Shown here: one piece after another, positions 7,020 to 35,776 of the stretch | How the letters are laid out: each line of letters starts with the position of its first letter | Position numbering within the stretch: position 1 is the stretch's first letter | Translations under genes and position numbers: made by a program | The notes under the pieces: model-generated | The model's database searches: none | What the model saw: the letters and a program-made list of their open reading frames with translations, nothing else | What the model was told of the DNA's origin: nothing | NCBI GenBank assembly: GCA_052034085.1 | Contig: JBPOJA010000026.1 | Span: 414-64,413, forward strand | Length of the DNA: 64,000 nucleotides | Direction: 5' to 3' | From: Bacillota bacterium | GTDB taxonomy: Bacteria > Bacillota > Clostridia > Peptostreptococcales > Anaerovoracaceae

Positions 7020-7064
7020 TTAATATGCCTCCTTTGATTAATTGTTTCTGATTATCATAGAGTA

Positions 7065-10379: not shown

Positions 10380-10396
10380 ATTATTTCTCCTTTCTC

Positions 10397-10927
10397 TTAA
10401 TAACCCATAGTCCGCACATTTTCGGACTCACCCGTAATAAGTACTATTATATCGTGTATAAGCTTGGAAATACCTTGTATAAAACACATGAACACACCAA
10501 AAGCAATTAGTGTTTTGATTGGATATAATATTGGTGCCAGCACCGAAGTAGATCTCTCACGAAAAGCCCAGGATATTTTTGCCATATCAACCATGTTATA
10601 TACTAAAAGTCCAACAAAAATAAAGAATAATATCGAAGTGAAGATGTCAACAATTGCCCTGGTTCGGACAGACCACCGTTCCCAGAAAACATCAACTTGT
10701 ACATGGCAATTATACAGCATTGCATAACCGCCGCCCATGCATCCCACCAAAGCCAATAATTGCCGGGCAATATCCTGCGCCCAAATTGTCGGGCTGTTAA
10801 AGAAATATCTGGAAACAACTTCGAAAGAGAGAACTCCGCAAATTACCAGCAAGGTCCATTTAAAGATTCTTCCGACCCAGTCATTTGCCGTATCAATAAA
10901 ATGTCTGATCTTTCTTAAGGTATTCAA
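10397..10927 (-). CDS. TRAP transporter small permease (DctQ family)
   Basis: 176 aa with 4 TM segments. It sits between the DctP and DctM genes. Confidence 0.8.
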   Translation of the reverse strand: MNTLRKIRHFIDTANDWVGRIFKWTLLVICGVLSFEVVSRYFFNSPTIWAQDIARQLLALVGCMGGGYAMLYNCHVQVDVFWERWSVRTRAIVDIFTSILFFIFVGLLVYNMVDMAKISWAFRERSTSVLAPILYPIKTLIAFGVFMCFIQGISKLIHDIIVLITGESENVRTMGY

Positions 10928-10950
10928 AAATTTTCACCACCTTTGTTTTT

Positions 10951-10989
10951 ATTATGCACATGGGAAGATTATCTCCCCATGTGCATAAT
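10951..10989 (-). promoter_or_regulatory. Intra-operon stem-loop after the TRAP binding-protein gene
   Basis: ATTATGCACATGGG-N11-CCCATGTGCATAAT, a 14-bp perfect stem in the 73-nt dctP-dctQ spacer. Confidence 0.5.
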
Positions 10990-11000
10990 AATTGGATCCT

Positions 11001-12056
11001 TTATTTGCTTTCCACCCACTTGAGTATAATATCATAGCCCGGCCCGGCTGCCGGATATTCTTTTCTGCACCTTTCAATGACAGCATCTGCCGCATCATAG
11101 AAAGGCTGTAAATTTTCTTCAGGAATCTCTGATATTTGAGTTCCATAATCTAACCCGGCTTCAATAGCACTTTTATCAAACGAAATGGATGCCTCGTAAA
11201 TGTCCATAAATATGTCCTGCATAGTTTTATTCACAATATCTTGAACTTCTTTTGGCAAAGCATTCCATGATTTCATGCTGATGCTCAGGTTAACCGGGGC
11301 GCTGCCACCAACTGCCGGTGTCACTAAATATTTAGTAACTTCCATCAGCTTTGAAGTCTCAAGTTCACATACGGTATAAATATTACCATCAATAGTTCCT
11401 AATCTCATTCCCATGTAGATATCTCCGCCTGACATTACAACAGGAGATCCGCCCAGCTCTTCAATGAACATTCCATAGGTCGTGGATGCTCTGATTTTCT
11501 TGCCTACAAAATCGCTTGCTTTGGTTACAGGGAAGTTGGTCATTATCATATATGCTCCGTTTGGCACATACATCCCAAAATAGATATCTGATTTTGCATA
11601 CTCATCCCGAATGAAATCCAGGAGTCCTGCATTGTAATAGGTGTCATATACATCCTGTCCATCCTGCCATAAGAATGGTACTCCTTGTTCCGCATATGCT
11701 GCCGGGATTAAGCCTGCAGTATGGTTCGGTGCAGTCAGCGCAGCATCCAGCAGGCCTTTTGAAAGCATTGTGGGCGCTTCATCCGGTTCACAAATTGCTC
11801 CGGGCTGAAACAATTCAAACTTGATCAATCCATCGGTAGCCTCAGTTATAGCTTTTGTTATCATCGGCATTTGAACATCCCAACATTGGTCTCCCGGTGG
11901 GTATGAGCTTTGAATTCTCCATGTTACTCCTTCAAATTCGGCAACATCTCCGCCACCACCACCGTTATCACCGCCGCCGCCGGTGCCACCGCCGCCACAT
12001 GCTGTTAAAGCAACAATCAGCATTGCAATCAGCAAAAACGATAATAATTTCTTCAT
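11001..12056 (-). CDS. TRAP transporter substrate-binding lipoprotein (DctP family), ligand unknown
   Basis: 351 aa. It has a lipobox (LTAC) followed by a Gly-rich linker (GGGGTGGGGDNGGGGGD) and then a DctP-like periplasmic binding fold sequence. Confidence 0.8.
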   Translation of the reverse strand: MKKLLSFLLIAMLIVALTACGGGGTGGGGDNGGGGGDVAEFEGVTWRIQSSYPPGDQCWDVQMPMITKAITEATDGLIKFELFQPGAICEPDEAPTMLSKGLLDAALTAPNHTAGLIPAAYAEQGVPFLWQDGQDVYDTYYNAGLLDFIRDEYAKSDIYFGMYVPNGAYMIMTNFPVTKASDFVGKKIRASTTYGMFIEELGGSPVVMSGGDIYMGMRLGTIDGNIYTVCELETSKLMEVTKYLVTPAVGGSAPVNLSISMKSWNALPKEVQDIVNKTMQDIFMDIYEASISFDKSAIEAGLDYGTQISEIPEENLQPFYDAADAVIERCRKEYPAAGPGYDIILKWVESK

Positions 12057-12127: not shown

Positions 12128-13288
12128 TTACTCAAATGCTTCTTCCAGTATTTCCAGTACGTCATCAGATGTAATCTTCACAGGATTCAATGCGAGCAAT
12201 CTGTAGGCCATTGTTCCCTCCACCAAATCGGGGAACATTTCCCTGGTTATCCCTACTTCTTTTAGTTTCATGGGTATGCCGGCATCTTCCGCCAGCTTAA
12301 AAACAATTTCTGATGATTTTGCGGCAATTTCCTCTTCAGCCAATCCGCTTTCGTCCACTCCCAGGGCTATGGCAATATCCTTAAATTTCCTGATATTGCC
12401 CTTTATATTTTTCTTCATAGCATACGGTAAAATCAGGCTGTTGGCAACCCCATGGGGAACGTCTGCCACTGCTCCCATTGTTTGTGCTATGCCATGAACG
12501 ACACCCAGGCCACCATTCATAAAGGCTACTCCGGCAATAGAGCTTGCCAGAGCCATCTTTCCCCTTGCCTCGAGATCTGCCCTGTCATTTATGGCTTTGA
12601 TCAAATTTTCACCTATTAATTTGATGGCATATAGCCCCATCATGTCACTCAGAGGTCCCGCATTCAACGAAACATATGATTCTATTGCATGGGTTAATGC
12701 GTCCATACCGGTGGTTCCCGTGACGAACTTCGGCATATCTACATGCAATTTGGGATCAATTACAGCTAGTGCCGGGAACAGATAATCATGGGTGACGGAG
12801 ACTTTTACACCCCTGGCTTCGTCATTCACAACCGATACCGGTGTCATTTCACTGCCACTGCCGGCTGTGGTCGGCACGCATATTAAAGGCATTGTAGGAT
12901 TGGTCACTGTCTTGCTACCCCCGAAAAGATAGTCGGCAATCGACCCATCATGAGTCTGCATCAGACACATTGCCTTAGCCGCATCTATTCTGCTGCCGCC
13001 TCCGACTGCCAGAACTGCGTCGGCATTGCTGGCCTTAAGGACTGCTGAAGCTTCATCAATCTGGTTAACAGAAGGCTCTGCCGCCAAATTGCTGTAAACC
13101 TCATAATCCATGCCGGCATTTTCAAGGGATTTTTTTATCTGCAAAACACCTTCGGTTTTACCTACTGTCGGGCCTGTTACAATAAAAATCTTTTTGTATC
13201 CCATACTCTTCAATGTGTCCCCGATTTTCTCCGCAGCACCGGTTCCGTACATTATCCTTGTAGGCATTTTAAACATAAAATCTTTCAT
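12128..13288 (-). CDS. Iron-containing alcohol dehydrogenase (4-hydroxybutyrate dehydrogenase-like)
   Basis: 386 aa with Fe-ADH motifs (AVGGGSRIDAAKAM, metal His cluster DALTHAIE, VHG). Confidence 0.9.
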   Translation of the reverse strand: MKDFMFKMPTRIMYGTGAAEKIGDTLKSMGYKKIFIVTGPTVGKTEGVLQIKKSLENAGMDYEVYSNLAAEPSVNQIDEASAVLKASNADAVLAVGGGSRIDAAKAMCLMQTHDGSIADYLFGGSKTVTNPTMPLICVPTTAGSGSEMTPVSVVNDEARGVKVSVTHDYLFPALAVIDPKLHVDMPKFVTGTTGMDALTHAIESYVSLNAGPLSDMMGLYAIKLIGENLIKAINDRADLEARGKMALASSIAGVAFMNGGLGVVHGIAQTMGAVADVPHGVANSLILPYAMKKNIKGNIRKFKDIAIALGVDESGLAEEEIAAKSSEIVFKLAEDAGIPMKLKEVGITREMFPDLVEGTMAYRLLALNPVKITSDDVLEILEEAFE

Positions 13289-13318
13289 AATCTTTCTCCC
13301 ATTCGGCTGAAATATGCA

Positions 13319-14593
13319 TTATAGAGATGCGAGAGCTTCTTCGAATATGGCAAGTCCTTTGTCCAGATCTTCTCTCGAAATATTCAGGGGTGTTGCAAAT
13401 CTGAATCCGTTTCCGTATACTCCGCATCCCAGAATCAGCATATTCTTTTTGAGGCAAAATTCTTTAACTTTGTTGAAAGCATCTGCATTCGGAGAGTTGT
13501 CTTCCGGATTGACAAACTCAGCGGCAACCATCAGACCCAGGCCCCTTACGTCGCCAATTACGGGATATTTCTCCTTAAGCTCAAATAATCTTCCTTTCAG
13601 GTATGAGCCCTGAGTATTGACGTTGTCCAGTATGTTTTCCTTTTCAAAGAGCTCCAGAATTTTCAGTGCGACTGCTGTGCATACCGGGTGACCTCCGAAA
13701 GTTGTTCCATGCATACCCGGTTCCCATTTGTCCATAATTTCTTTTCTGCTTGCAATGCATGACATGGGAAGTCCTCCGGCAATGGCTTTGCCCATGGTCA
13801 TTATATCAGGAACTATGCCGAAATGCTCACTGGCAAACATTTTGCCTGTTCTTCCGAAGCCTGACTGGATTTCGTCAAAAATGAGGAGTATGCCGTGTTT
13901 CTTCAGCAATTCACTCAGCTTTTCAACATACTTCTTCGGCGGGACGACATATCCGCCTTCACCCATGAGCGGTTCCATTATGACTGCCGCCACATTTTCG
14001 GGTGCTATCAGGTAATCAAATGTCCATTGCAGTTCCCTTAAGCATTCCAGGCTGCAGGTTTCGCAGGTTGTGTTGTAGGGACATCTGAAGCAGTTGGGAT
14101 AGGGAACAAAATATACTGACGGAAGAAGCGGCTCAATGTTTTTCCTGTACTTTGAGTTTGAGCCTGTAATGGATGCTGCTCCCAGTGACCGTCCGTGAAA
14201 CGATCCCCGCATGGAGATTATTCCCGGTCTTCCTGTGAAGTTGCGGGCCAGTTTTAAAGCTCCGTCGTTGGCCTCTGCGCCGCCGTTGCTGAAGAAAAAC
14301 ACATCCAGGTCACCGGGTGTGACTTCTGCCAGTTTTTCCGCATATTTTAATGTGCTGGGATAGTTGACCAAATTAAATGATGCAGTGATAAGTTTTCCTG
14401 CCTGCTCCTGCAGGGCTTTGACTATTTCCGGATGACAATGGCCGAAAGCATTTACTGCAATGCCCTGAACGAAATCCAGATATCTGACTCCGTTCACATC
14501 TTCCACATAGCATCCTTCGCCTTTTTCAATAATTAAATCTGTCGCTTTTGCTAAAGCCGGGCTAAGATACTGTTTGTACTCTTCAAATTTCAT
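13319..14593 (-). CDS. Class-III (omega) aminotransferase, GabT/ArgD-like
   Basis: 424 aa. It carries the motifs SNGGAEANDGALKLAR, IFDEIQSGFGRTGKMFA and TMGKAIAGG (PLP lysine). Confidence 0.9.
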   Translation of the reverse strand: MKFEEYKQYLSPALAKATDLIIEKGEGCYVEDVNGVRYLDFVQGIAVNAFGHCHPEIVKALQEQAGKLITASFNLVNYPSTLKYAEKLAEVTPGDLDVFFFSNGGAEANDGALKLARNFTGRPGIISMRGSFHGRSLGAASITGSNSKYRKNIEPLLPSVYFVPYPNCFRCPYNTTCETCSLECLRELQWTFDYLIAPENVAAVIMEPLMGEGGYVVPPKKYVEKLSELLKKHGILLIFDEIQSGFGRTGKMFASEHFGIVPDIMTMGKAIAGGLPMSCIASRKEIMDKWEPGMHGTTFGGHPVCTAVALKILELFEKENILDNVNTQGSYLKGRLFELKEKYPVIGDVRGLGLMVAAEFVNPEDNSPNADAFNKVKEFCLKKNMLILGCGVYGNGFRFATPLNISREDLDKGLAIFEEALASL

Positions 14594-14639
14594 GTTACCC
14601 CTCCTGTATTAAAAATTTAAAATAACTGATGCCTTTGCG

Positions 14640-16016
14640 TTAATAAGAAATCTTGCTTGTATTGCACCATATACCCATGCGCTCTGCCTCTTTTATCAGG
14701 TCTTCCCTGAAATCGGGATGTGCTATGTTGATTAAGAGTTCGGTTCTTTCCCATGTTGATTTTCCTTTGAAATTGGCCGTGCCGTATTCGGTTACCAGAT
14801 TATGTATGGCTGCTCTTGGCACCGTCACGATTGACCCTTCCGGCAGTCTGGGAACAATCAGGGACTCTTTGCTTCCGTCTTTTTTCGCCCTTGTGGAAGG
14901 CAGGCACAGGAAGCTTTGTCCGCCTTTTGACTTGAAAGCGCCCATAACGAAGTCCAATTGTCCTCCGTTGCCGCCAATATGCTGCCATACGGCGGATTCT
15001 GAATTGACTTGACAGAAAAGATCGATTTGCAGGCAGCTGTTGATTGAAACCACTTTGTCATTTTCTGCTATCACACCCAAATCATTGACCCATTCCACCG
15101 GGGCACAATGACAGATCGGATTTCCGTCGATGAAATCATAAAGCTCCTGGGAACCCTGTGAAAAGGTGTACACCATCTGACCTTTCATTGTATTTTTATT
15201 GCCTGTAATTTTGCCTTCCTTGTAGAGATGCAAATATGCATCAACGAACATTTCCGAATGCACACTTAAATCACCTATATCCGAATGCGCAATCATGCTG
15301 CCCACATAATTTGGTATTCCGCCTATTCCAAGCTGTAATGTGCTCCCGCTTTCTATCCTGTTGACAATTTGTCCCGCTATTGCCTTGTCAACCTCATTTG
15401 CATCTTTGGCCGTAATAATAGGCATATCTACATTGCTGCCTTCTACGACATAATCCACCTGGCCAATGTTAATTGTGGTTTTTAATCCCATGGCCTGTGG
15501 TTGCTTTTCATTGACTTCCACTATTACTGTTTTTGCCTTTTCCAGAATCCCCCAGTATTCAGCCACCTGAGGTCCCAGGTTGAAGTTTCCCCATTTGTCC
15601 ATGGGTCCAACCTGCAACATGGCAACATCTATGTCGCCTACATTCTCGGCCCAGAGCTTGGTGTTTTCCCTGAACTGCACCGGTATGTACCAGCAGCATC
15701 CATTTTTATTCATCTGCCTGTCCAAACCGCTGAAATGAGTGCTTAAATATTTGAAATGCTGCGACCCCGGGTCGGCTTCAAGAATTGCGGGGGGATCGGG
15801 ATATGCCCAGATAGTCGTGCAGACTTTTACATCCCGCAACTCTTCTGTCCTTTTGGCCAGGGCTTTGTCCAAATCAACAACCAGACCGTTAAACAGGCCA
15901 TAGTGAATACGATCACCCGATTTGATGACTTTTACCGCTTCATCTGCGGAAACACATTTTTTTCTGTATTCCGCCTCAATCCCGGAAAATTTACTGATAT
16001 TGCTTACTCTGTTCAT
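14640..16016 (-). CDS. Acetyl-CoA hydrolase/transferase family CoA-transferase (Cat2/AbfT/butyryl-CoA:acetate type)
   Basis: 458 aa. It shows the family-typical segments LQLGIGGIPN, SEMF and GGQLDF. Confidence 0.85.
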   Translation of the reverse strand: MNRVSNISKFSGIEAEYRKKCVSADEAVKVIKSGDRIHYGLFNGLVVDLDKALAKRTEELRDVKVCTTIWAYPDPPAILEADPGSQHFKYLSTHFSGLDRQMNKNGCCWYIPVQFRENTKLWAENVGDIDVAMLQVGPMDKWGNFNLGPQVAEYWGILEKAKTVIVEVNEKQPQAMGLKTTINIGQVDYVVEGSNVDMPIITAKDANEVDKAIAGQIVNRIESGSTLQLGIGGIPNYVGSMIAHSDIGDLSVHSEMFVDAYLHLYKEGKITGNKNTMKGQMVYTFSQGSQELYDFIDGNPICHCAPVEWVNDLGVIAENDKVVSINSCLQIDLFCQVNSESAVWQHIGGNGGQLDFVMGAFKSKGGQSFLCLPSTRAKKDGSKESLIVPRLPEGSIVTVPRAAIHNLVTEYGTANFKGKSTWERTELLINIAHPDFREDLIKEAERMGIWCNTSKISY

Positions 16017-16036
16017 TTTGCTTCCTCCTAATTGGA

Positions 16037-17221
16037 CTAATCATACAAAGCTTCCAGTATGACTGCAGTTCCCATTCCGCCGCCTGCGCACAGGGTTGCA
16101 AGTCCATACTTGTTGCCGCGCCTTCTCATTTCATAAAGCAGAGCTATCATTATCCTTGTGCCGGTTGCTCCGACCGGATGCCCCAAAGAAATTCCGCCGC
16201 CATTTACGTTGGTAATCTCCCTGTTTAGCCCAAGAGCTTTTTCACAGCCTATATACTGGGCGGCAAATGCTTCATTGACCTCTACCAGTTCCAGGTCTTC
16301 CAGTTTCAGTCCGGCTTTTCCCAAAGCCTTTTCAGTTGCACTGACGGGACCAAGCCCCATTATTTCCGGTTCGATGCCCGTGGTAGCAACAGATACGATT
16401 CTTGCCAATATGGGAACGCCAAGTTCCCTTGCCTTGTCCTCTGCCAGTAAAATCACACCGGAAGCGGCATCATTCATTCCGGATGCATTTCCTGCGGTAA
16501 CGGTTCCGTCATCCTTGAATGCCGGCTTCAGTTTCGCCAGGCTTTCTAACGTAACATCCCGTTTTGGATATTCATCCGTGTCATAAACCACATCACCTTT
16601 ACGGCCTTTTACGGTAACCGGGACAATTTCTTCTTTAAATTTGCCCGCATCCTGGGCTGCCACAGCTCTCTGCTGTGAGAGAAGCGCATACTCGTCCTGT
16701 TCCTCTCTGGAAATGCTGAATTTTTCCGCGATGTTTTCTGCGGTTATTCCCATACCCGGCCCGATACCGAGATTAGTCAGAGAATCCCACATGGAGTCCC
16801 TCAGTTCCATGTGACCGAACTTCTGTCCGTATCTGGCCTTAAATGCCATGTGCGGGGCTGTACTCATGCTGTCAGCCCCTCCCGCCATAATGCAGTCGGC
16901 CTCTCCTGCCCTTATCTGATAAAATCCCAGCTGTACGGAAGACATGGAAGATGTGCAGTTTCTGTGAATGGTGATGCCGGGAACGCTGGTCGGCAATCCC
17001 GCTTTTACCAGGGCCACTCTTGCCAGGTTGTTTTCCATGTAAGTCCTTTGATAGTTGCAACCCCAGATAACATCATCTATTATGGCAGGATTTATTCCAG
17101 CCCTTTCAACCAGAGATGACATTACCGGTATAGACAAATCCAGCGAAGTAATGTTCATAAACTGCCCGCCCATAGTTCCTATAGGTGTTCTGGCTGCCGA
17201 AACAATAACTACATTTCTCAC
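16037..17221 (-). CDS. Acetyl-CoA C-acetyltransferase (thiolase II)
   Basis: 394 aa. The motifs are NRNCTSSM (active-site Cys), NVNGGGISLGHPVGATG and CAGGGMG. Confidence 0.9.
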   Translation of the reverse strand: MRNVVIVSAARTPIGTMGGQFMNITSLDLSIPVMSSLVERAGINPAIIDDVIWGCNYQRTYMENNLARVALVKAGLPTSVPGITIHRNCTSSMSSVQLGFYQIRAGEADCIMAGGADSMSTAPHMAFKARYGQKFGHMELRDSMWDSLTNLGIGPGMGITAENIAEKFSISREEQDEYALLSQQRAVAAQDAGKFKEEIVPVTVKGRKGDVVYDTDEYPKRDVTLESLAKLKPAFKDDGTVTAGNASGMNDAASGVILLAEDKARELGVPILARIVSVATTGIEPEIMGLGPVSATEKALGKAGLKLEDLELVEVNEAFAAQYIGCEKALGLNREITNVNGGGISLGHPVGATGTRIMIALLYEMRRRGNKYGLATLCAGGGMGTAVILEALYD

Positions 17222-17254
17222 TTTTCTTCCCTCCTGATTTGATTCACCTTTATT

Positions 17255-18022
17255 TTATTCACCTTTATAAACCGGTTTTCTCTTTTCCACAAAAGCGCTC
17301 ATGCCTTCTTTTTGATCTTTGGTGTTGAAAAGTCCGGCCCAGTTGCTGCCTTCTATTTCCACGGCTTTTTTAACATCCGCTTCCAGCAGGCCTTCCCTTA
17401 TTGTCTTTTTTGCAATCTTCTGTGCAATGGTGGCTCCTATGGCCAGCTTTTCCGCCCAATTCATGGCATCCTCAAAGCAGGCTCCTTTTGCGCTGACTTT
17501 GTTTACAAGACCTGCTTTTTGCGCATCCTCTGCGCTGATTATGGTGCCGAGCAGAACCAGTTCCATTGCCTTGGCTTCTCCTGCAATTCGCGCCGCTCTG
17601 GCGGTTCCCCCCGCCCCGGGCATTATGCCCAGTGTTATTTCGGGAAAGCCCAATTTGGCGTCTTCATCGGCAATCCTCATATCGCAGGCCAAAGCCAGCT
17701 CAAATCCTCCGCCCAGTGCATATCCTTCAATTGCTGCTATGGTTGGAAATTCGAGATCTTCAATCTTGTTAAAAGTTTCTGAGAAGGCGAAGGCTTTGGC
17801 TTCCTCTTCATTAAAATCAAGCATGCTTTTGATATCTGCGCCCGCTGCAAAGTTTTTTTGACTGTGAATGACCAGGACCTTGACGGTTTCATCATTTTTT
17901 ATGCGCTCGATTGCCTCATCCAGTTCATCCACAAGCTCCCTGTTAAGAGCATTGTAAGCCTCCGGCCTTTGTATGCTGAGCACTGCAATGTTATTTTCGT
18001 TTCTGATGTTGATATATGACAT
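17255..18022 (-). CDS. Enoyl-CoA hydratase (crotonase family)
   Basis: 255 aa. It contains FAAGADI, GYALGGGFELALACD and PEITLGIMPGAGGT. Confidence 0.9.
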   Translation of the reverse strand: MSYINIRNENNIAVLSIQRPEAYNALNRELVDELDEAIERIKNDETVKVLVIHSQKNFAAGADIKSMLDFNEEEAKAFAFSETFNKIEDLEFPTIAAIEGYALGGGFELALACDMRIADEDAKLGFPEITLGIMPGAGGTARAARIAGEAKAMELVLLGTIISAEDAQKAGLVNKVSAKGACFEDAMNWAEKLAIGATIAQKIAKKTIREGLLEADVKKAVEIEGSNWAGLFNTKDQKEGMSAFVEKRKPVYKGE

Positions 18023-18036
18023 CTGTTTCCCCTCAA

Positions 18037-18900
18037 TTAATACTCATAGAAGCCTTTTCCGGTTTTCCTTCCATACTCGCCTCTGGCATACATTTCTGTG
18101 AGGCAGGCTGCAGGCCTGTCTTCAGGTTTTTCAGTCATCCTGAATTTTTCCATATAAACGTTATACTCCAGATCTATCCCTGTCATATCCAGAAGTTCAA
18201 GAGGTCCCATAGGATGACCCAGTCCGCCCTTTACTGCCTTGTCTATGTCTTCCACCGACGCGATTTCCATATCCACAAGATAGCAGGCCTCTCTTGTGAG
18301 AGCGCTGAAAATCCTGTTAACAATGAAGCCATAAATTTCCTTTTCAACCAGAACCGGCGTTTTGCCTATAGCCTTTGTAAATTCATAAACCGTGTTTACG
18401 GTTTCTTCAGATGAATGAGGCCCTTTTACAACTTCAACTATCTTCATTACCAAAGCCGGATTAAAAAAGTGCATATTACATACATTTTCAGGTCTTCTCA
18501 CTACGTCACAGAATCTTGAACTTACTATGTAGGAACTGTTGCTTGCGTAAATAGCATGTTCCGGCGCAAATTTGTCGGCTTCTTTCAGAACTTTTCTCTT
18601 GATTTCCAAAACATCTGCGACTGTTTCCACTATGATGTCGGCATTTTTACATGCCTCTTCAAGGCTTGTGGTGAAAGTGAGCCTGCCTTTGATTTCATCT
18701 GTTTCCGCTTGAGAAAACTTCTCTTTCGCTACTGCCTTTTCAAACCACCCGTCTGCATATTTTTGCGCCTTGTCCACTGTTTCCTGCCTTCTTGAATAAC
18801 AGACGGTTTCAAAACCATTTATGGCTATTTGCATCGCAATCTGATTTCCCATCAGACCTGCTCCCAATACTGCTGCTTTCTTAATCTCCATATTTTGCAC
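18037..18900 (-). CDS. 3-hydroxyacyl-CoA (3-hydroxybutyryl-CoA) dehydrogenase
   Basis: 287 aa. It has the NAD-binding motif VLGAGLMGNQIA and the signatures HFFNP and GFIVNR. Confidence 0.9.
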   Translation of the reverse strand: MQNMEIKKAAVLGAGLMGNQIAMQIAINGFETVCYSRRQETVDKAQKYADGWFEKAVAKEKFSQAETDEIKGRLTFTTSLEEACKNADIIVETVADVLEIKRKVLKEADKFAPEHAIYASNSSYIVSSRFCDVVRRPENVCNMHFFNPALVMKIVEVVKGPHSSEETVNTVYEFTKAIGKTPVLVEKEIYGFIVNRIFSALTREACYLVDMEIASVEDIDKAVKGGLGHPMGPLELLDMTGIDLEYNVYMEKFRMTEKPEDRPAACLTEMYARGEYGRKTGKGFYEY

Positions 18901-18923
18901 CCTTTCTCCTTTTTTAAATAATG

Positions 18924-19694
18924 CTAATTATCCATCTCTTTAGCATATATCGCTGCGCCTAACGCACCCATTGTCTGTGGGCTTTCCAACCTTACTATGT
19001 CGTAACCTGTTTCCGTTTCCAACGCTTTTATTACACTTTCGTTTAAAGCCACACCCCCCGACATTACAATCATGGGGGTTAACCCGATGCGATTGATAAG
19101 ACCTGCAACTCTTTGAGCTATCGATTTATGAGCTCCCAAAGCTACGTCTTCGATTTTCTTTCCTGCCGCCAGCTGGGAAATCATCTCAGATTCAGCAAAA
19201 ACGGTACAGGTGCTGCTGATGGTTACTCCATCCTTGCCTCTTTCCGCCATATCGGACAGCCCGTCAATGGTTGTATCCAAAACCCTGCCCATGACCTCAA
19301 GGAATCTGCCTGTGCCGGCTGCACATTTCTCGTTCATGACGAAATTTTTAACATTGCCGTTTTCATCTATCGATATGACTTTTGCATCCTGGCCTCCTAT
19401 GTCGATAATGGTCCTGGCTTCCGGAACAGTTTTGATTACTCCTTTTGCGTGGCAGCTTATTTCGGTAATCTGCTTGTCTGCCCCTTCAAAAGTCATACGT
19501 CCATAACCTGTGACCACGGTCTTTTTTATATCGTCGCGCTGAATGCCTGCCATTTTAAGTGCTTCATCTATCACTTTCTGAGGGCCTCTGCTACCTGTTC
19601 CTATATTGATTACCGCCTGCCCGGCAATATTTCCATCTTTGTCCAAAATTACTGCTTTAGAGGACGACGAGCCTATATCCAGTCCCAGATACAT
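18924..19694 (-). CDS. 2-hydroxyacyl-CoA dehydratase activase (BcrAD/BadFG ATPase, HgdC/HadI-like)
   Basis: 256 aa. It contains LGLDIGSSSSKAV, DIGGQD and the cluster-ligand context NEKCAAGTGRFLE. Confidence 0.9.
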   Translation of the reverse strand: MYLGLDIGSSSSKAVILDKDGNIAGQAVINIGTGSRGPQKVIDEALKMAGIQRDDIKKTVVTGYGRMTFEGADKQITEISCHAKGVIKTVPEARTIIDIGGQDAKVISIDENGNVKNFVMNEKCAAGTGRFLEVMGRVLDTTIDGLSDMAERGKDGVTISSTCTVFAESEMISQLAAGKKIEDVALGAHKSIAQRVAGLINRIGLTPMIVMSGGVALNESVIKALETETGYDIVRLESPQTMGALGAAIYAKEMDN

Positions 19695-19719
19695 ATAGTT
19701 TCTCCTTTTGTAAATTATT

Positions 19720-20847
19720 TTAGAGTATTTCGCTGAAAGTTTGGATTCTTGTTCTTAATTGCTCAACAGAATCCATCTGCTGTTCAATTTCTATGTATAG
19801 TGCCGGTACACCTGCTTCTTCCAGCTCTTTTTTTATCACCGGATAATCAAACTCTTCCGGATCACAAAACTTGAGCTGGCAATATACAATACCATCCGCA
19901 TTGAATTGTTTCTTGAGGTCAATCAGCATCTTCCCCCTGGTTTTTTCCTTATCGTACAGGAAGGGGCAGCCGTCCTGCCGTGCCACCCTTTCAGCCATTC
20001 TTTCAAAAACATCACCTTCTTGGGGGACTCTGACCCGGAACTGTCTCGACTCCTGCGCAAGGTCATCGGCAACTATAACGAGATTGTTTTCTGAAAAGAG
20101 ATTGAGAAATTCTTCGGGTTCCGCCAGAAGCCCTGAAATGATAATCCTCTTATAGGTGTTTTCTTTCCGGGGTATTTCTTTAAGCCCCTCCAGCAGGAGC
20201 TTCATATTCTCTACATATTCTGCTTTATCCATGAAATATGCCGCTTTGATGATTAAGTGCCTTGTGGATGCATCAAATATTTCAGGATAATCTCCGGCTG
20301 CTGCGACAAATTCTCTCATCAGGCTTCTGTATTCCTCATAGAGTGCATAGCTTTTTTCAAGAGCCTCGTCTGTAACGGTCACACCCAGGACTTTTTCCAG
20401 CTCTCTCTTAACACGGGCAAACTCCTCTCTCATAAAAATTTTCCCCGCAGAGGTTTTTCTGTTTTGCGAATAAACCACGGGGATGATATTTAAATGAGGG
20501 ACTGCCACTTTCCAGTTTTCTATCGTGCATTTCAGAGTGTCACAGAAAGCGCTTACAAGCACTGCAGACAGTTTGTCGTAAACACCTTTAAGGGCCTGGT
20601 GGGTGTTTGCCTTTATTACTGAACAGCAAAAAACCTGGTAATACCTGTCGCTGAGATTTCCAACCTGGGGACCTCCCCACATGCCTATGGGCAGTGCTCC
20701 TGCTGCGTAAACCAGCTCATCCGGCGAATAAATAGGAAAGCAGCCAACAGCTTTTTTTCCGGTCTTCTGAATTGCGAGTTCCACCGATCTTGCGGGATGC
20801 CTGGCAATTTCCTTAAATTCTTCTATTACTTTGTTAACATCTGTCAT
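19720..20847 (-). CDS. 2-hydroxyacyl-CoA dehydratase beta subunit (HgdB/HadC-like)
   Basis: 375 aa. It overlaps the alpha-subunit gene by 4 nt, and its size and sequence are typical of the HgdB/HadC family. Confidence 0.8.
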   Translation of the reverse strand: MTDVNKVIEEFKEIARHPARSVELAIQKTGKKAVGCFPIYSPDELVYAAGALPIGMWGGPQVGNLSDRYYQVFCCSVIKANTHQALKGVYDKLSAVLVSAFCDTLKCTIENWKVAVPHLNIIPVVYSQNRKTSAGKIFMREEFARVKRELEKVLGVTVTDEALEKSYALYEEYRSLMREFVAAAGDYPEIFDASTRHLIIKAAYFMDKAEYVENMKLLLEGLKEIPRKENTYKRIIISGLLAEPEEFLNLFSENNLVIVADDLAQESRQFRVRVPQEGDVFERMAERVARQDGCPFLYDKEKTRGKMLIDLKKQFNADGIVYCQLKFCDPEEFDYPVIKKELEEAGVPALYIEIEQQMDSVEQLRTRIQTFSEIL

Positions 20848-22070
20848 TGTGAATTGCCTCCCTTTGCTTTGCGCTCTTCCATCATTTCCACCAGTGCCTG
20901 CACTCTGGTTTCATATTGGGCCTGTGAGAATGCCCTGGGGTCCGTCTGATCGCCGTCAAAGATTACGGAAGGTACTCCGGTTGCCTGCTCTACCCTTCTT
21001 TGAACCTCAAACTGCCTGAAATCCATAAGCTTGCAGCTTCTGTTGGAGTGGTAGATTATCCCGTCAAGCTCAAAATTTCTAACCAGATTGACAATATTGT
21101 CAACGCCGAAATCAAGATTTCTGTTTACATAATTTGAGCTGTAAGCTCTTGCCATCCCATCCAGGTCATTGTCATCGTAAACTATGTACCAGGAATCGGG
21201 ATAAGTGGAAGTCACCATATTGATTCCGTAGTTTTTCAATGTCTTGTAAGTACTGCTCAAATATGGCCAGCAGGCTATGCCGTCCCACATTACCCTGTAC
21301 TTTTCTTCCCCGTCCTTCCATGGGCCCAGACCCTTTTCTGCCTTGTCTTTCAGCTCATCATGCCACATTTTGAAGAGTTCCCTTCCTTCTTCCGTGCCTC
21401 TTGCGCACACAATCGTGGCCATGTAGTTAAATAAGTCAAAGCCATTTAAGGGCGAAGGCTTGGCTCTTGCAAGGAGAGAAGCTTTTTTCCACCATATCGA
21501 TGTATCTCTCGATATGCTCATTACTTCGGAAAATTTGTCATAATCAAACTTTTTACCGGTGATGTTTTCAACCTGTCTGATAGCATCTAAAAGCTGTGCT
21601 TTCATATACTTTGTGTTTTGCTCATTAATTTCATACTGGTGATTGAAAGGCATGTCGAATACTATCATGGGAATATTGAGCTGCTTGGCAATGTTTTCAT
21701 ACCATTTGATGACAGTGTTGCAGATATTGTTGCAGCAAAAAATCAGATCCGGGCGCGGCATATTTCCGGCATCGCTATGCATGATGTCCAGATAGCCCAT
21801 ATTGACTCTTGCATATGAACAGATGTCAACGGAATATCCCTTTCCTTCTGCCTGGTTTATGAATTCCTGAGCCTGTTTTCTGGCCCCTATTGCGGCTGCA
21901 TGGTTTTCAGGATACATGGTATAGATATCTGCTGTTGTGAGAATTTCCTGAGGGGAGATAGATGTTGCCCAGGCCACAAGCTTTCCTTCTTCTTTCGCTG
22001 TGAAAGCCTCTTTGTAATGCCTGTCCAGCATTTCATTCAACAGCTGCTTTGACGTTTTGACTGTGTCCAC
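20844..22070 (-). CDS. 2-hydroxyacyl-CoA dehydratase alpha subunit (HgdA/HadB-like)
   Basis: I chose the GTG start at 22070 (VDTVKTSKQLL...) because GGGAGGG lies 5-6 nt upstream. The ORF-track TTG at 22100 has no RBS. The sequence is family-typical (AWATSISPQEIL, ICSYARVN). Confidence 0.8.
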   Translation of the reverse strand: MDTVKTSKQLLNEMLDRHYKEAFTAKEEGKLVAWATSISPQEILTTADIYTMYPENHAAAIGARKQAQEFINQAEGKGYSVDICSYARVNMGYLDIMHSDAGNMPRPDLIFCCNNICNTVIKWYENIAKQLNIPMIVFDMPFNHQYEINEQNTKYMKAQLLDAIRQVENITGKKFDYDKFSEVMSISRDTSIWWKKASLLARAKPSPLNGFDLFNYMATIVCARGTEEGRELFKMWHDELKDKAEKGLGPWKDGEEKYRVMWDGIACWPYLSSTYKTLKNYGINMVTSTYPDSWYIVYDDNDLDGMARAYSSNYVNRNLDFGVDNIVNLVRNFELDGIIYHSNRSCKLMDFRQFEVQRRVEQATGVPSVIFDGDQTDPRAFSQAQYETRVQALVEMMEERKAKGGNSQ

Positions 22071-22161
22071 TTTTACCCTCCCGGATACGACGATAGGCAA
22101 ATGCGAATATTTTTTATGTTATTGTTGCTGTTACTACTATGTCTACTATGTTTTCTATCGT

Positions 22162-22178
22162 CGCAAAAGTTGTGCCAA
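22162..22178 (-). promoter_or_regulatory. Sigma-54 (-24/-12) promoter
   Basis: The minus strand reads TTGGCAC-AACTT-TTGCG, matching the consensus TGGCAC-N5-TTGC exactly. It lies about 90 nt upstream of the dehydratase start and downstream of a sigma-54 EBP gene. Confidence 0.75.
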
Positions 22179-22312: not shown

Positions 22313-23695
22313 CTAAATGCCATACTTTTTCAGTTTTCTTATTATGGTCGATTGATCTATTTTCAATGCTTTTGACATTTTGCGACTGCTGCCATACTGG
22401 GATTTTGCCCTTTCCAGAATAAACTTTTCATAATCATCAACTAATTCTTTAAATGATTTGCTTTCACCCGGACTGCAGGGATCTTCCCTTTTTGTGTCCC
22501 TGAACCATGGCAGGTCTGATATTTGAAGATATTCATTATTGCTGACCACCACCATGTTTTCAATAACGTTTTTCAGCTGTCTGATATTTCCTTTCCAGCT
22601 GTTCATTTTCAACTCTTCAAGCACCTCGTACGTGAGTCTTTTGTTCTGCCCGTACTGCTTATTGAACTGATTCAGAAAACCAAGCGCCAAGGGCATAATT
22701 TCTTCTTTTCTTTCCCTTAGCGGCGGGATGTCTATTGTTATAACATTTAACCTGTAGTACAGATCTTCGCGGAAATCGCCGGAAGCCACCATTTCTCTCA
22801 GATCCTTGTTTGAAGCAGCAATAACACGTATGTCCACCGGAATATATTCTGTTGATCCCACACGGTTAATGGTCCTTGATTCCAATGCCCTCAGTAATTT
22901 TACCTGCAGGTTTAAACTCATCTCTCCTATTTCATCCAGTAAGAGCGTTCCGCCGTTTGCGGCTTCAATTAAACCTTCTTTGCCTCCTTTCGCAGCTCCG
23001 GTAAAAGCACCTTCGGCATAACCGAAAAGTTCAGACTCCAGCAATGATTCCGGAATGGAACCACAGTTTACGGCAATGAAAGGTTTGTTCCTTCTCAGCA
23101 TGCTGTTGTCATGGATAAATCGGGCCAACACATCTTTGCCCACCCCGGACTCTCCAGAAATCAGTATCGTTGTGTTAAAATCTCCCACCTTTTTGGCAAG
23201 AGAAAAAATTTCTTCCATAACCCTGTTTATTACTACAATTCCATGACTTTCTCCGCTTTTCTCAGCATTTAGCTGGTCAAAATATATCCTTTCCATTTTC
23301 CTGGCATCGTCAAGTTCTTCTTTGAGAGCATATATTTCAGACATGTCTCTTGTATTGACAACTACTCTTTTTATAGTTCCGTCTTCCTGGAAAATGGGAG
23401 TTCCTGTAACAATGATATTTTTGCCATGCCTGGTTGTGTGGTGCATGGTAACCGGCCTCCCCTGTTCAATAGCCAGCAGAACAACTGAGTTTTTCATCCA
23501 GACAGGATTAATGAGCTCACGAACATTGTGACCTAAAAGCTCATCCTTTTGTATATTAGTATTTCTTACGTAAGATTGATTAACAAGGAGAACTTTTCCA
23601 TCCCCGTCAGTGACCATTATTCCATCAAAAGAACCTTCTATAATTTCCTGTAGTTCTTCCAGGCTTTTATCTTTATTTTTGTCTGGCCCAAACAT
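22313..23695 (-). CDS. Sigma-54-dependent transcriptional activator (PAS - AAA+ - HTH)
   Basis: An N-terminal PAS-like domain is followed by GESGVGKD (Walker A), GAFTGA and ELFGY (sigma-54 contact), then a C-terminal Fis-type HTH (SSRKMSKALKIDQSTIIRKLKKYG). The start is taken at the internal ATG at 23695; 23725 is also possible. Confidence 0.9.
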   Translation of the reverse strand: MFGPDKNKDKSLEELQEIIEGSFDGIMVTDGDGKVLLVNQSYVRNTNIQKDELLGHNVRELINPVWMKNSVVLLAIEQGRPVTMHHTTRHGKNIIVTGTPIFQEDGTIKRVVVNTRDMSEIYALKEELDDARKMERIYFDQLNAEKSGESHGIVVINRVMEEIFSLAKKVGDFNTTILISGESGVGKDVLARFIHDNSMLRRNKPFIAVNCGSIPESLLESELFGYAEGAFTGAAKGGKEGLIEAANGGTLLLDEIGEMSLNLQVKLLRALESRTINRVGSTEYIPVDIRVIAASNKDLREMVASGDFREDLYYRLNVITIDIPPLRERKEEIMPLALGFLNQFNKQYGQNKRLTYEVLEELKMNSWKGNIRQLKNVIENMVVVSNNEYLQISDLPWFRDTKREDPCSPGESKSFKELVDDYEKFILERAKSQYGSSRKMSKALKIDQSTIIRKLKKYGI

Positions 23696-23820
23696 GATGT
23701 CACGATATCCTTTCCTGCAAACCACACCACAAGTTTATTATGGTACAGTTTACTATAATAAAAAAATTCATTCAACACATGTCATAAGAATAGGGTATTA
23801 CGCAGAGATGACGGAGAGCA

Positions 23821-24105: not shown

Positions 24106-24570
24106 CTAGACCTGAGTGGTAAGGAATATGGGCAGACCCATCTGGTCTATCCTGTCCTGAAAACCTTCGATATCGTCCATGTGGCGGTCTTCGTCCATTA
24201 AGATTTCCTCAAGCAGGTCCTTCGTGGCGAAGTCGCCCACTTCACTGGCCAGCTTGATGGCTTCGTTGTAAGCCCTGATGGCATCAACTTCCGCCAGCCT
24301 GTCATTTTCCAGCTGATTGGGCACCTGGGCGCCGATGTGAATTTTTCTGAGTTCTGTGACTATGGGCCTTCCTTCCAGGAACAGAATCCTGCCTATGAGT
24401 TTCTCCGCATGTTTCATTTCGTCAATGGCTCTCTTTTCGAAGCTTTCATGAAGCTTGTCGTAGCCCCAGTCCGCGCACATCTCCGAGTGAACCATGTATT
24501 GATTAATCGCCGTCAGTTCATCGGCCAAAAGTGAATTAAGTGTTTCAAGTAGTTTGGGATCGCCTTTCAT
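24106..24570 (-). CDS. bfr: Bacterioferritin
   Basis: 154 aa. The opening MKGDPKLLETLNSLLADELTAINQYMVHSEM and the di-iron ligand motifs (E..H twice) match. The RBS is AAGGAGG. Confidence 0.9.
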   Translation of the reverse strand: MKGDPKLLETLNSLLADELTAINQYMVHSEMCADWGYDKLHESFEKRAIDEMKHAEKLIGRILFLEGRPIVTELRKIHIGAQVPNQLENDRLAEVDAIRAYNEAIKLASEVGDFATKDLLEEILMDEDRHMDDIEGFQDRIDQMGLPIFLTTQV

Positions 24571-32086: not shown

Positions 32087-32108
32087 CTCATCAGCTCCTT
32101 TACAATCA

Positions 32109-35764: not shown

Positions 35765-35776
35765 ATGCCCACCCCC

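Follow-up and report, generated by a model that had tools for sequence, protein, structure and literature searches.

In a 64,000-nt stretch of an Anaerovoracaceae genome (Clostridia; GCA_052034085.1, contig JBPOJA010000026.1), hereafter the window, a gene cluster on the minus strand encodes a HadBC-type 2-hydroxyacyl-CoA dehydratase and its activase next to a 3-hydroxyacyl-CoA dehydrogenase (Hbd), a crotonase (Crt), a thiolase (Thl), a CoA-transferase, a class III aminotransferase (AT3), and an iron-containing alcohol dehydrogenase (Fe-ADH). We propose, with about an even chance of being right, that this is a sigma-54-activated fermentation operon with two entries and one trunk. In it, small hydroxy acids and amino acids would converge on a 2-enoyl-CoA (most probably crotonyl-CoA), which would be cleaved to acetyl-CoA for ATP. 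All of the parts belong to known families and their chemistry has precedents; what seems to be new, judged from the literature that we searched, is the combination in one operon.

Gene content of the operon

We annotated every non-nested open reading frame (ORF) of at least 150 aa in the window with Pfam. Nine enzyme ORFs lie within 12128-22100, all on the minus strand (Pfam and NCBIfam) and either 14-46 nt apart or overlapping (Table 1). A first-pass annotation, made from the sequence alone, had listed these nine as a block (dehydratase alpha and beta, activase, Hbd, crotonase, thiolase, CoA-transferase, aminotransferase, and Fe-ADH), and each of them is found in its place on that strand. It had missed the sigma-54 activator, the -24/-12 promoter, the tripartite ATP-independent periplasmic (TRAP) transporter genes dctPQM, and the LarA-family gene. 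It had also remarked that 4-hydroxybutyryl-CoA dehydratase (AbfD) is missing from the block, which proves to be the case for the whole 64 kb by both tblastn and Pfam. With tblastn, AbfD, acyl-CoA dehydrogenase, and D-2-hydroxyacid dehydrogenase have no match in the 64 kb, and the AbfD homologs of two related loci (L026 and L050), used as queries, have none in the window either. Among the window ORFs of at least 150 aa, Pfam finds no HpaB_N/HpaB, acyl-CoA dehydrogenase, D-2-hydroxyacid dehydrogenase, electron transfer flavoprotein (ETF), or glutaconyl-CoA decarboxylase (Gcd).

Table 1. Predicted features of the operon in the order of transcription, with their positions in the window
Feature	Position	Strand	Domains, models, and matches
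Sigma-54-dependent activator (PAS sensor, AAA+ sigma-54 interaction domain, HTH)	22313..23725	-	Pfam PAS, Sigma54_activat, AAA_lid_14, HTH_50
Predicted sigma-54 (-24/-12) promoter, TTGGCAC-N5-TTGC, TGGCACAACTTTTGCG / TTGGCACAACTTTTGCG	22162..22177	-	1 mismatch to TGGCAC-N5-TTGCW
Alpha subunit, HadB-like 2-hydroxyacyl-CoA dehydratase	20844..22070 (ORF to 22100)	-	PF06050 (HGD-D)
Beta subunit, HadC-like dehydratase	19720..20847	-	PF06050; overlaps alpha gene by 4 nt
ATP-dependent activase (HgdC/HadI type)	18924..19694	-	PF01869 (BcrAD_BadFG)
3-Hydroxyacyl-CoA (3-hydroxybutyryl-CoA-type) dehydrogenase, Hbd	18037..18900	-	3HCDH_N, 3HCDH
Short-chain enoyl-CoA hydratase (crotonase)	17255..18022	-	ECH_1; top match PRK05809
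Thiolase, acetoacetyl-CoA (thiolase II) type	16037..17221	-	Thiolase_N, Thiolase_C; TIGR01930 above cut-off
Acyl-CoA:acetate CoA-transferase, 4-hydroxybutyrate/butyrate (Cat2/But) family	14640..16016	-	AcetylCoA_hydro, AcetylCoA_hyd_C
Class III (GabT-like) omega-aminotransferase, AT3	13319..14593	-	Aminotran_3; PRK08117 628 bits, above 574 cut-off
Iron-containing alcohol dehydrogenase (putative aldehyde reductase), Fe-ADH	12128..13288	-	Fe-ADH, ADH_Fe_C
TRAP transporter (DctP 11001-12056, DctQ 10397-10927, DctM 9063-10379)	9063..12056	-	Pfam DctP, DctQ, DctM
LarA-family nickel-pincer-cofactor isomerase (putative 2-hydroxyacid racemase/epimerase), 414 aa	7783..9027	-	NF052515

The first two genes encode paralogous PF06050 subunits side by side, with HGD-D matches of E = 6e-80 for the alpha ORF (20844-22100) and E = 4e-81 for the beta ORF (19720-20847). 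The alpha subunit most likely starts at the GTG at 22070, behind a GGGAGGG ribosome-binding site, which gives a protein of 408 aa, the same length as database entry P0374. Against the HadB model NF052455 it scores 550 bits, under the cut-off of 750, and the beta subunit scores 460 bits against the HadC model NF052456, under the cut-off of 700; we therefore do not file the pair as HadBC proper. The alpha subunit aligns over its full length with HadB (PDB 3O3M chain A, 457 bits) and keeps the cysteine motifs D(I/L)C.YAR, CCNNICN, and NRSCKLM, which we take to be the [4Fe-4S] cluster ligands. The activase gene adjoins the beta gene, and its product scores 263 bits with TIGR00241 ('acyl-CoA dehydratase activase'), above the cut-off of 125. 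Ketyl-radical dehydratases, which are sensitive to oxygen, form a thioester ketyl radical anion and expel the alpha-hydroxyl beside the carbonyl, and they have no route to the elimination of a gamma-hydroxyl.

The top NCBIfam matches of Hbd are short-chain Hbd models of clostridial type, every one of them under its cut-off. In the crotonase, whose nearest models are likewise short-chain clostridial ones, the two motifs with the catalytic glutamates (GGGFEL and FPE) are intact, and the nearest solved structures of the thiolase are the acetoacetyl-CoA thiolases 3SS6 and 4WYR (401-411 bits). With the butyryl-CoA:acetate transferase model TIGR03948 the CoA-transferase scores 506 bits, under the cut-off of 675, and its top solved relatives are all 4-hydroxybutyrate CoA-transferases at 229-272 bits (3EH7 = 272), a family-level match. 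The top solved relatives of AT3 are the 4-aminobutyrate (GABA) aminotransferases PuuE and GabT, and the E. coli GabT positions I50, R141, E211, Q242, K268, T297, and R398 are all kept, presumably with the roles that they have in GabT. By its fold and these residues, AT3 is predicted to be a GABA:2-oxoglutarate aminotransferase. Thus, thiolase, crotonase, Hbd, CoA-transferase, and AT3 all look like C4-type enzymes at the level of sequence.

The Fe-ADH has ErcA, FucO, methanol, and 1,3-propanediol dehydrogenases as top matches. Its orthologs are paired with AT3 in five related loci (L053, L056, L060, L061, and L062), and a homolog with 47% identity adjoins AbfD in L135. A metagenome scan with the Fe-ADH alone found nothing; the same scan with an alignment of its orthologs returned mostly generic Fe-ADHs at 35-40% identity, among which L064 and L135 were the only informative ones. 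A taurine/isethionate reading of this end of the cluster (a Tpa-like aminotransferase, a SarD-like Fe-ADH, and a TRAP transporter) was dropped because the SarD model scores below other Fe-ADH models and the core is left unexplained.

Sigma-54 control and transcription unit

Upstream of the alpha gene lies the gene for an activator whose Sigma54_activat domain is matched at E = 8e-67; the protein resembles PrdR, with a score under the PrdR cut-off (NCBIfam). The promoter is predicted about 90 nt upstream of the GTG start. Both elements expected of a sigma-54 operon are thus found, namely an enhancer-binding protein with a sigma-54 interaction domain and a -24 GG/-12 GC promoter. They are also found among relatives, since an activator homolog stands directly upstream of hadB in most related loci, and the motif TGG[CT]A[CT]-N5-T[TC]GC occurs upstream of hadB in 25 of the 35 loci tested, being absent from the deltaproteobacterial loci and from a more distant cluster type described below. 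The genes upstream of the activator are unrelated housekeeping and signalling genes, and we therefore take the activator as the cluster boundary.

From the alpha gene to panB the gaps measure 14-73 nt (16-73 nt downstream of Fe-ADH, on the same strand), and the sole strong minus-strand terminator-like hairpin (6164-6140) comes after panB. The 71-nt gap between Fe-ADH and dctP holds only a weak 8-bp hairpin with no T-run. The promoter, the short gaps, and the single terminator together suggest that the alpha gene and the genes downstream of it form one transcription unit. Between dctP and dctQ there is a perfect 20-bp stem-loop (10949-10991, minus strand; -30 kcal/mol, z = -5.95, none of 200 shuffles as stable), again with no T-run, which may be an mRNA-stabilising or processing element that raises expression of the binding protein over that of the membrane subunits.

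Next after the LarA homolog come a ThiF/MoeB-like adenylyltransferase gene and a lone panB (6186-7766, minus strand), set off from the preceding gene by 16 and 45 nt, respectively. The same layout is seen in L054, and an Old Yellow Enzyme (OYE)-type flavoenzyme gene takes this place instead in L056/L057. Both genes probably lie outside the conserved pathway.

Related loci

A homology search started from the alpha subunit gave 2,659 matches (E <= 1e-30) from NCBI, ENA, JGI, and Logan assemblies, and the 120 best-scoring ones listed are all at least 70% identical. The closest are 85-87% identical and, where the source is named, come from Anaerovoracaceae metagenome-assembled genomes (MAGs). We also scanned the alpha subunit against 185,579 species genomes, which gave 48 loci, and mapped the window proteins onto these and further loci. 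About 25 loci, from several families, share the order s54-hadB-hadC-hadI-hbd-crt-thl-cat, an arrangement far beyond chance. The sources are Anaerovoracaceae MAGs, Oscillospiraceae-labelled MAGs, Sinanaerobacter chloroacetimidivorans, Zhenpiania hominis, Clostridium aromativorans, C. transplantifaecale, C. symbiosum ATCC 14940 (with no adjacent activase), and a Negativicutes MAG. In Desulfobacterales and Smithellaceae MAGs the cluster is rearranged, with the CoA-transferase and TRAP genes upstream.

The genes behind this core vary, and we distinguish tail variants a to g. Variant a has a D-lactate-dehydrogenase-like 2-Hacid_dh and an HpaB-family protein, AbfD (L050-L052, a truncated L001, and also L018), and variant b has AbfD alone (L026). 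Variant c has AT3, Fe-ADH, and a second, unrelated 2-Hacid_dh lineage that we call F5 (L004, L015, L020, L027, L033, L041/L060, and L061). Variant d has AT3, Fe-ADH, DctPQM, and the group 22 LarA homolog (the window, L053 as far as dctP, and L056/L057). Variant e has a Glt_symporter-family transporter and a Fer2/Pyr_redox_2-Fer4/BFD/DAO set (C. symbiosum-type loci, and L135, which continues with Fe-ADH and AbfD). Variant f has AT3 followed by Acyl-CoA_dh (L002 and L012), with ETF found by Pfam in L002 only, and variant g has transporters of the major facilitator superfamily or other TRAP transporters (L009 and L010). The first-pass annotation had pointed to the lack of an acyl-CoA dehydrogenase and Etf; this stands for the window and breaks down among its relatives, where L002 has Acyl-CoA_dh and ETF directly after AT3 and L012 a Bcd homolog in the same place.

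The closest relatives of the window cluster, L050-L052 with 87% alpha identity, belong to variant a. The window alpha subunit falls in the same 90% cluster as theirs and as P0001, whose contigs carry AbfD. The core of the window is thus almost the one that leads into AbfD in these relatives. AbfD shares an operon with HadBC-type genes in five independent cluster types (L050-52, L018, L026, L043, and L135). It matches C. aminobutyricum AbfD (PDB 1U8V) with 846 bits and keeps the motifs CxxxC and HxxxxxxC, which we assume to be the cluster ligands, and is, judged on these features, a genuine AbfD. The first-pass annotation held that an HgdABC-type enzyme had replaced AbfD. Its presence beside HadBC-type genes in these relatives contradicts that view: the radical dehydratase occurs together with AbfD and does not take its place.

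In most variants, the dehydratase is also accompanied by an enzyme predicted to set the R configuration at C2, either a D-2-hydroxyacid dehydrogenase or a LarA-type isomerase. The dehydrogenase of L050 type is nearest to D-lactate dehydrogenases (228 bits), then to D-2-hydroxyisocaproate dehydrogenase (186) and HgdH (183) in the PDB; this type occurs in L001, L018, and L050-52. The F5 lineage is nearest to archaeal glyoxylate reductases and phosphoglycerate dehydrogenases, which suggests that a D-2-hydroxyacid dehydrogenase was recruited at least twice independently. F5 is followed by RidA in L060 and L061, and in L060 additionally by a SoxAB/DAO-like multi-subunit amine dehydrogenase, an SNF transporter, a PRK07475 gene of the Asp/Glu-racemase superfamily, and a BaiCD-like flavoenzyme.

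A module of an amino-acid transporter, Fe-ADH, class III aminotransferase, 2-Hacid_dh, RidA, amine dehydrogenase (Fer2_4/Pyr_redox_2/Fer4/BFD/DAO), and a PRK07475 racemase-like protein is found in L062/L063 (1-16700) and L060 (7528-20665), and thus occurs with or without the dehydratase core. The window AT3 and Fe-ADH are 55% and 52% identical to the copies in L062/L063.

A second, more distant cluster type, with alpha subunits 53-63% identical, is seen in L032, L035-L040, L043, and L044, from Flavonifractor- and Dysosmobacter-like genomes. Here the genes run thl-hbd-hadB-hadC-hadI-cat-TRAP-crt, in some loci followed by bcd, and there is no adjacent same-strand sigma-54 activator or promoter. 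This type may serve a complete 2-hydroxy-acid dismutation or a valerate-forming route. Three of these loci (L038, L039, and L040) come from bins labelled Bacteroidaceae, Alistipes communis, and Bacteroides stercoris, and have the gene order of L037 with matching identities to the window proteins; bin contamination is possible. One NCBI contig of 544 kb (L049, 10001-12351) carries only the two HGD-D genes, identical to P0001, amid unrelated housekeeping genes (RNase P, YidC, rpoA, and rplQ), and may be a chimeric assembly or a cluster remnant.

TRAP transporter and LarA-family isomerase

The similarity of DctP to PDB entries is weak, the best being 4PE3, followed by the TTHA0766 binding protein and 2HZK/2HZL (E about 1e-16). 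TTHA0766 is called lactate-binding in related PDB entries, and 2HZK/2HZL are, as we take it, the alpha-keto-acid-binding protein TakP. The LarA homolog scores 486 bits with NF052515 ('NPN-dependent isomerase, group 22'), above the cut-off of 400, and its Pfam Lar_N match is weak. A PDB sequence search with it gave no meaningful match, so that its identification rests on NCBIfam. It is 100% identical to database entry P0121, which also occurs in Logan sample ERR12982444. None of larB, larC, and larE is found within the 64-kb window.

The TRAP genes stand at the same place after Fe-ADH in L053, L056, and L057. In L056/L057 the LarA homolog likewise follows dctM, and the order AT3, Fe-ADH, DctPQM, LarA is retained there despite a fall to 66% identity with the LarA homolog of the window. 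Characterised LarA family members invert C2 of lactate, 2-hydroxybutyrate, 2-hydroxyglutarate, and 2,4-dihydroxybutyrate (PMC11770544). Given this retained order and this family chemistry, we assign the TRAP transporter and the LarA homolog to the first entry of the proposed pathway, and treat them as its putative uptake and stereo-inversion step.

LarA homologs have been sorted into 25 groups, among which a group 22, possibly the same as group 22 of NCBIfam, associates with TRAP genes, short-chain dehydrogenases/reductases, dihydroxyacid dehydratases, and sugar kinases (Desguin 2020, Table S1, PMC7583248). In the literature, we found neither a characterised member of group 22 nor an operon that associates LarA with a 2-hydroxyacyl-CoA dehydratase. 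A nickel hydride-shuttling enzyme reported in 2026 has an aldo-keto reductase fold and was set aside as not relevant to the LarA homolog.

Proposed pathway

We propose that the CoA-transferase would make the CoA esters for both entries, and that crotonase, Hbd, and the thiolase II-type thiolase, all three of which are encoded here, would form a shared oxidative trunk. In the first entry, the TRAP transporter would import a 2-hydroxy acid, the LarA-type isomerase would convert it to its R form, and the CoA-transferase would esterify the R-2-hydroxy acid. The ATP-activated HadBC-type enzyme would then remove the alpha-hydroxyl by ketyl-radical chemistry to give the 2-enoyl-CoA. The substrate that we prefer, tentatively, is 2-hydroxybutyrate (from threonine, methionine, or 2-oxobutyrate), the likeliest single candidate though less likely than not to be right, which would lead to crotonyl-CoA directly. 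Hydration of crotonyl-CoA at C3 would amount to a formal 2-to-3 hydroxyl shift and would permit thiolysis to two acetyl-CoA. This corresponds to the first of two readings offered by the first-pass annotation (2-hydroxy acid to 2-enoyl-CoA, formal 2,3-hydroxyl shift, and cleavage), which is strengthened by the LarA or D-2-hydroxyacid dehydrogenase genes nearby and by the kept crotonase glutamates. If 2-oxobutyrate is the input, the route would be redox-neutral and carbon-conserving, with the NADH spent at a 2-oxo acid reductase regained at Hbd and two acetyl-CoA formed with no loss of CO2.

In the second entry, AT3 and Fe-ADH would convert GABA into succinic semialdehyde and then 4-hydroxybutyrate, which the same CoA-transferase would turn into 4-hydroxybutyryl-CoA. 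An AbfD encoded outside the window would complete the way to crotonyl-CoA. AbfD is specific for 4-hydroxybutyryl-CoA, and the HadBC-type enzyme and AbfD would be partners that feed one trunk, neither of them a substitute for the other. Consistent with the two entries, a dehydratase of the 2-hydroxyacyl-CoA family converts (R)-2-hydroxybutyryl-CoA into crotonyl-CoA in the threonine and methionine fermentation of C. propionicum (PMC8473912), and in human gut metagenomes the 4-aminobutyrate pathway is carried mainly by C. symbiosum-like genomes (PMC3994512).

Several observations weigh against this two-entry scheme. All of its enzyme functions are assigned from sequence and gene context, and with no AbfD in the 64 kb the second entry is incomplete as seen. 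Known 4-hydroxybutyrate dehydrogenases are less similar to the Fe-ADH than are enzymes for methanol, 1,3-propanediol, and lactaldehyde, and the Fe-ADH scores 235 bits with the C. necator-type 4-hydroxybutyrate dehydrogenase model, whose cut-off is 500. For the first entry, the methionine gamma-lyase-like genes found upstream of L050-52 do not recur at the other loci, and the Glt_symporter-like transporters, the Asp/Glu-racemase-superfamily gene, and the SoxAB/DAO-like amine dehydrogenase of relatives point to glutamate or 2-oxoglutarate, not 2-oxobutyrate. Group 22 LarA homologs are found in sugar-acid contexts too (also Desguin 2020, Table S1, PMC7583248), as in Anaerovorax odorimutans, whose LarA homolog (59% identical) sits in a sugar-acid cluster. 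Finally, AT3, Fe-ADH, a glyoxylate-reductase/phosphoglycerate-dehydrogenase-like 2-Hacid_dh, and RidA stand together in L062/L063 with no had genes within reach, a grouping that would fit one substrate processed at both ends.

Alternative explanations

The glutamate-type genes of the relatives raise the alternative of a glutamate-centred hub, which we regard as unlikely. Here, 2-oxoglutarate would be reduced, or L-2-hydroxyglutarate racemised by LarA, to (R)-2-hydroxyglutarate, and its CoA ester dehydrated to glutaconyl-CoA by the HadBC-type enzyme. Glutaconyl-CoA would be decarboxylated to crotonyl-CoA by an enzyme encoded elsewhere, or hydrated, oxidised, and cleaved directly, and GABA from glutamate decarboxylation would enter through AT3, Fe-ADH, and AbfD. 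Such a hub would account for the Glt_symporter-family transporters after the CoA-transferase in C. symbiosum-type loci and L135, and the SoxAB/DAO-like amine dehydrogenase, RidA, and the Asp/Glu-racemase-superfamily gene could regenerate 2-oxoglutarate from glutamate. It would also agree with AT3, predicted to be 2-oxoglutarate-dependent and keeping the 2-oxoglutarate/glutamate-binding positions R398 and E211, and with F5, which is phosphoglycerate-dehydrogenase/glyoxylate-reductase-like and in some members named 2-oxoglutarate reductase by JGI. In addition, DctP-type TRAP systems classically carry dicarboxylates.

Against the glutamate hub, no glutaconyl-CoA decarboxylase gene is found in the window, in the Pfam-annotated genes of about 15 loci, or in the upstream ORFs scanned in L002, L018, and L020, the extra ORFs there being housekeeping and signalling genes and one transporter. 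The alpha subunit has the length of HadB, 408 aa, whereas classical HgdA has about 477 aa, and the CoA-transferase is of the monocarboxylate 4-hydroxybutyrate/butyrate family and not GctAB. In the closest relatives, the D-lactate-dehydrogenase-like enzyme scores higher to D-lactate dehydrogenases than to HgdH. C. symbiosum is already credited with glutamate fermentation by the hydroxyglutarate route (PMC8473912) and is expected to hold the classical HgdAB; its second, activase-less paralog therefore more likely takes a different substrate.

The grouping in L062/L063 leads to another alternative, in which a diamino or imino acid (for example lysine, ornithine, or proline) would be degraded along a single linear route; we consider it quite unlikely. 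AT3 and Fe-ADH would act at the omega end, and alpha-deamination followed by reduction or racemisation at the 2-oxo position would give an (R)-2,omega-dihydroxy acid. CoA transfer, HadBC-type dehydration at C2, and the Crt/Hbd/Thl steps would then yield acetyl-CoA and an omega-hydroxyacyl-CoA. In the lysine case, this would be 4-hydroxybutyryl-CoA, which AbfD would convert into crotonyl-CoA for a second pass through the trunk, so that two radical dehydratases would work in series. If true, this would be a new, mutase-free anaerobic fermentation of lysine or ornithine. Every accessory gene, AbfD included, gets a role in a single route, and AT3, Fe-ADH, 2-Hacid_dh, RidA, the amine dehydrogenase, the racemase-like gene, and the amino-acid transporter do form a unit of their own in L062/L063 and follow the core in L060. 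Group 22 relatives of LarA in polyhydroxy-acid contexts, and the OYE- and BaiCD-like ene-reductases that recur nearby, would fit as well.

Nevertheless, 2,omega-dihydroxy acids are not known to us as natural intermediates, and the trunk enzymes (thiolase, crotonase, and Hbd) look specific for C4 compounds. Genes for alpha-deamination are absent from the window and from L056, although both carry a TRAP system, which needs an anionic substrate. Moreover, AbfD occurs with neither AT3 nor Fe-ADH in L050-52, L018, and L026, and L135 has Fe-ADH, AbfD, and a glutamate-type transporter with no AT3. The linear pathway is thus a poor fit to variants a, b, d, and e.

It is also conceivable, and in our view very unlikely, that only hadBCI-hbd-crt-thl-cat forms a pathway and that the tail genes (AT3, Fe-ADH, TRAP, and LarA) are unrelated neighbours, for example a sugar-acid or amine module. 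The tail does vary among close relatives, group 22 LarA and TRAP genes have a known sugar-acid association, with such a context in A. odorimutans, and the AT3/Fe-ADH module occurs in L062/L063 in the absence of had genes. However, more than 12 loci of different lineages have AT3 and Fe-ADH behind the CoA-transferase, and TRAP and LarA genes follow in two lineages, that of the window (also L054) and that of L056/L057, at identities down to 66%, with at least dctP in L053. The gaps of 30-73 nt show neither a terminator nor a second promoter, and each tail variant supplies a function that would fit the trunk, be it a C2 dehydrogenase or racemase, the formation of 4-hydroxybutyrate, or AbfD.

That the HgdABC-type enzyme itself dehydrates 4-hydroxybutyryl-CoA or another non-2-hydroxy acyl-CoA in place of AbfD, as in the second reading of the first-pass annotation (a non-canonical hydroxyacyl-CoA derived from an omega-amino acid), would suit a window that has AT3, Fe-ADH, and a Cat2-type transferase and no AbfD, but is hardly credible given that a true AbfD is encoded beside the HadBC-type genes by five cluster types, that of the closest relatives among them, and given the C2-specific partners (LarA or D-2-hydroxyacid dehydrogenase) of the dehydratase, and a ketyl mechanism, outlined for 2-hydroxyacyl-CoA dehydratases (PMC8473912), that acts only on an alpha-leaving group.

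Three further readings were considered and dropped. The fermentation of 5-aminovalerate is described with an acyl-CoA-dehydrogenase-type step and needs neither an alpha-hydroxyl dehydratase nor a C2 enzyme. A beta-alanine or lactate/acrylate reading would leave the core Hbd and thiolase with no substrate, and for 2-oxoadipate no CoA-acylating succinate-semialdehyde dehydrogenase is found in any locus.

Comparison with known systems

HadBC/HadI of C. difficile resembles the window enzyme in having two PF06050 subunits and a BcrAD_BadFG activase side by side, with the same cysteine motifs. The window proteins differ from it in scoring below the equivalog cut-offs and in their CoA-transferase, which is of Cat2/But type, whereas HadA is a family III CoA-transferase. 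The C. difficile enzyme serves the reductive branch of the leucine Stickland fermentation; the window has no AcdB/EtfBA, and its enoyl-CoA would be hydrated, oxidised, and cleaved instead of reduced. Sigma-54 control would be a further similarity if the had operon of C. difficile is sigma-54 dependent as well. A paper on the Clostridiales sigma-54 regulon does not describe the present operon.

The chemistry proposed for the first entry is that of the (R)-lactoyl-CoA dehydratase of C. (Anaerotignum) propionicum, which leads from 2-oxobutyrate through (R)-2-hydroxybutyrate and its CoA ester to crotonyl-CoA (PMC8473912), a comparison made by chemistry alone. C. propionicum ferments threonine and methionine to propionate and butyrate (PMC8473912), whereas the Crt-Hbd-Thl trunk of the window would oxidise crotonyl-CoA to acetyl-CoA. 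The GABA fermentation of C. aminobutyricum, which runs through GABA aminotransferase, AbfH, AbfT, and AbfD to a dismutation of crotonyl-CoA, likewise uses a GabT-like aminotransferase, an Fe-ADH, a 4-hydroxybutyrate-CoA-transferase-family enzyme, and Crt/Hbd/Thl. In the window, however, there is no AbfD or Bcd/Etf, the Fe-ADH is not near known 4-hydroxybutyrate dehydrogenases, and this set is joined to a 2-hydroxyacyl-CoA dehydratase, a TRAP transporter, and a LarA-type isomerase under one predicted sigma-54 promoter.

The hydroxyglutarate pathway of Acidaminococcus fermentans and C. symbiosum (HgdH, GctAB, HgdCAB, and GcdABCD) follows the same logic, from a 2-oxo acid through the (R)-2-hydroxy acid, the CoA ester, and the enoyl-CoA to crotonyl-CoA and acetyl-CoA. 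It differs in that no Gct or Gcd genes are found in any locus examined, in that the window alpha subunit is HadB-like, and in that the CoA-transferase belongs to another family. Within the LarA superfamily, the window protein passes the group 22 model, and its neighbours form a 2-hydroxyacyl-CoA dehydratase operon. Searching the literature, we found no description of a 2-hydroxyacyl-CoA dehydratase operon with Crt-Hbd-Thl, a Cat2-type transferase, AbfD or GABA genes, and a LarA homolog, nor a list of HadBC pocket residues usable for substrate prediction.

2-Hydroxyacyl-CoA dehydratases are known for the key step of reductive branches of amino-acid fermentation, in which the enoyl-CoA is reduced to a fatty acid. 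Here, a large clade of them is wired to a hydratase/dehydrogenase/thiolase trunk and would serve an oxidative, ATP-yielding route that moves the hydroxyl from C2 to C3. The presence of such a dehydratase beside GABA/4-hydroxybutyrate genes and a putative nickel-pincer racemase suggests that several amino-acid-derived acids meet in a common crotonyl-CoA hub in asaccharolytic Clostridia. The operon offers candidates for a dedicated 2-hydroxybutyryl-CoA dehydratase, for the function of LarA group 22, and for the role of a new TRAP binding protein. In surveys of butyrate formation, the 'glutarate' route (HgdABC) is kept apart from the '4-aminobutyrate' route (AbfD) (PMC3994512, PMC9403272), and pathway callers that count these routes from HgdAB-like or AbfD-like genes may misassign the present loci.

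Other features of the window

The remaining ORFs of at least 150 aa are housekeeping or unrelated genes, among them hrcA-grpE-dnaK-dnaJ, lepA, hemN, a pyruvate phosphate dikinase, a peptidase, MatE, and a ferritin. The spacer between MatE (24858-26471, minus strand) and the ferritin (24106-24570, minus strand) holds a GC-rich tandem repeat of 39 bp in 5.1 copies (24656-24859, consensus CCGGCCTGGGTTTTTGGGCCGGCTAATTTTGGGCCGGT), which also scored as several terminator-like hairpins on the plus strand. Four same-strand ORFs at 31181-36328 (minus strand) include proteins of 1037 aa (32109-35222), 301 aa, and 181 aa that have no Pfam match at all, together with a weak Yip1-like membrane protein. A 483-aa ORF on the opposite strand (48471-49922, plus strand), whose single match is a weak one to HTH_28, is surrounded by housekeeping genes in a stretch of low GC content (0.41); it may be a transposase or what is left of a mobile element.

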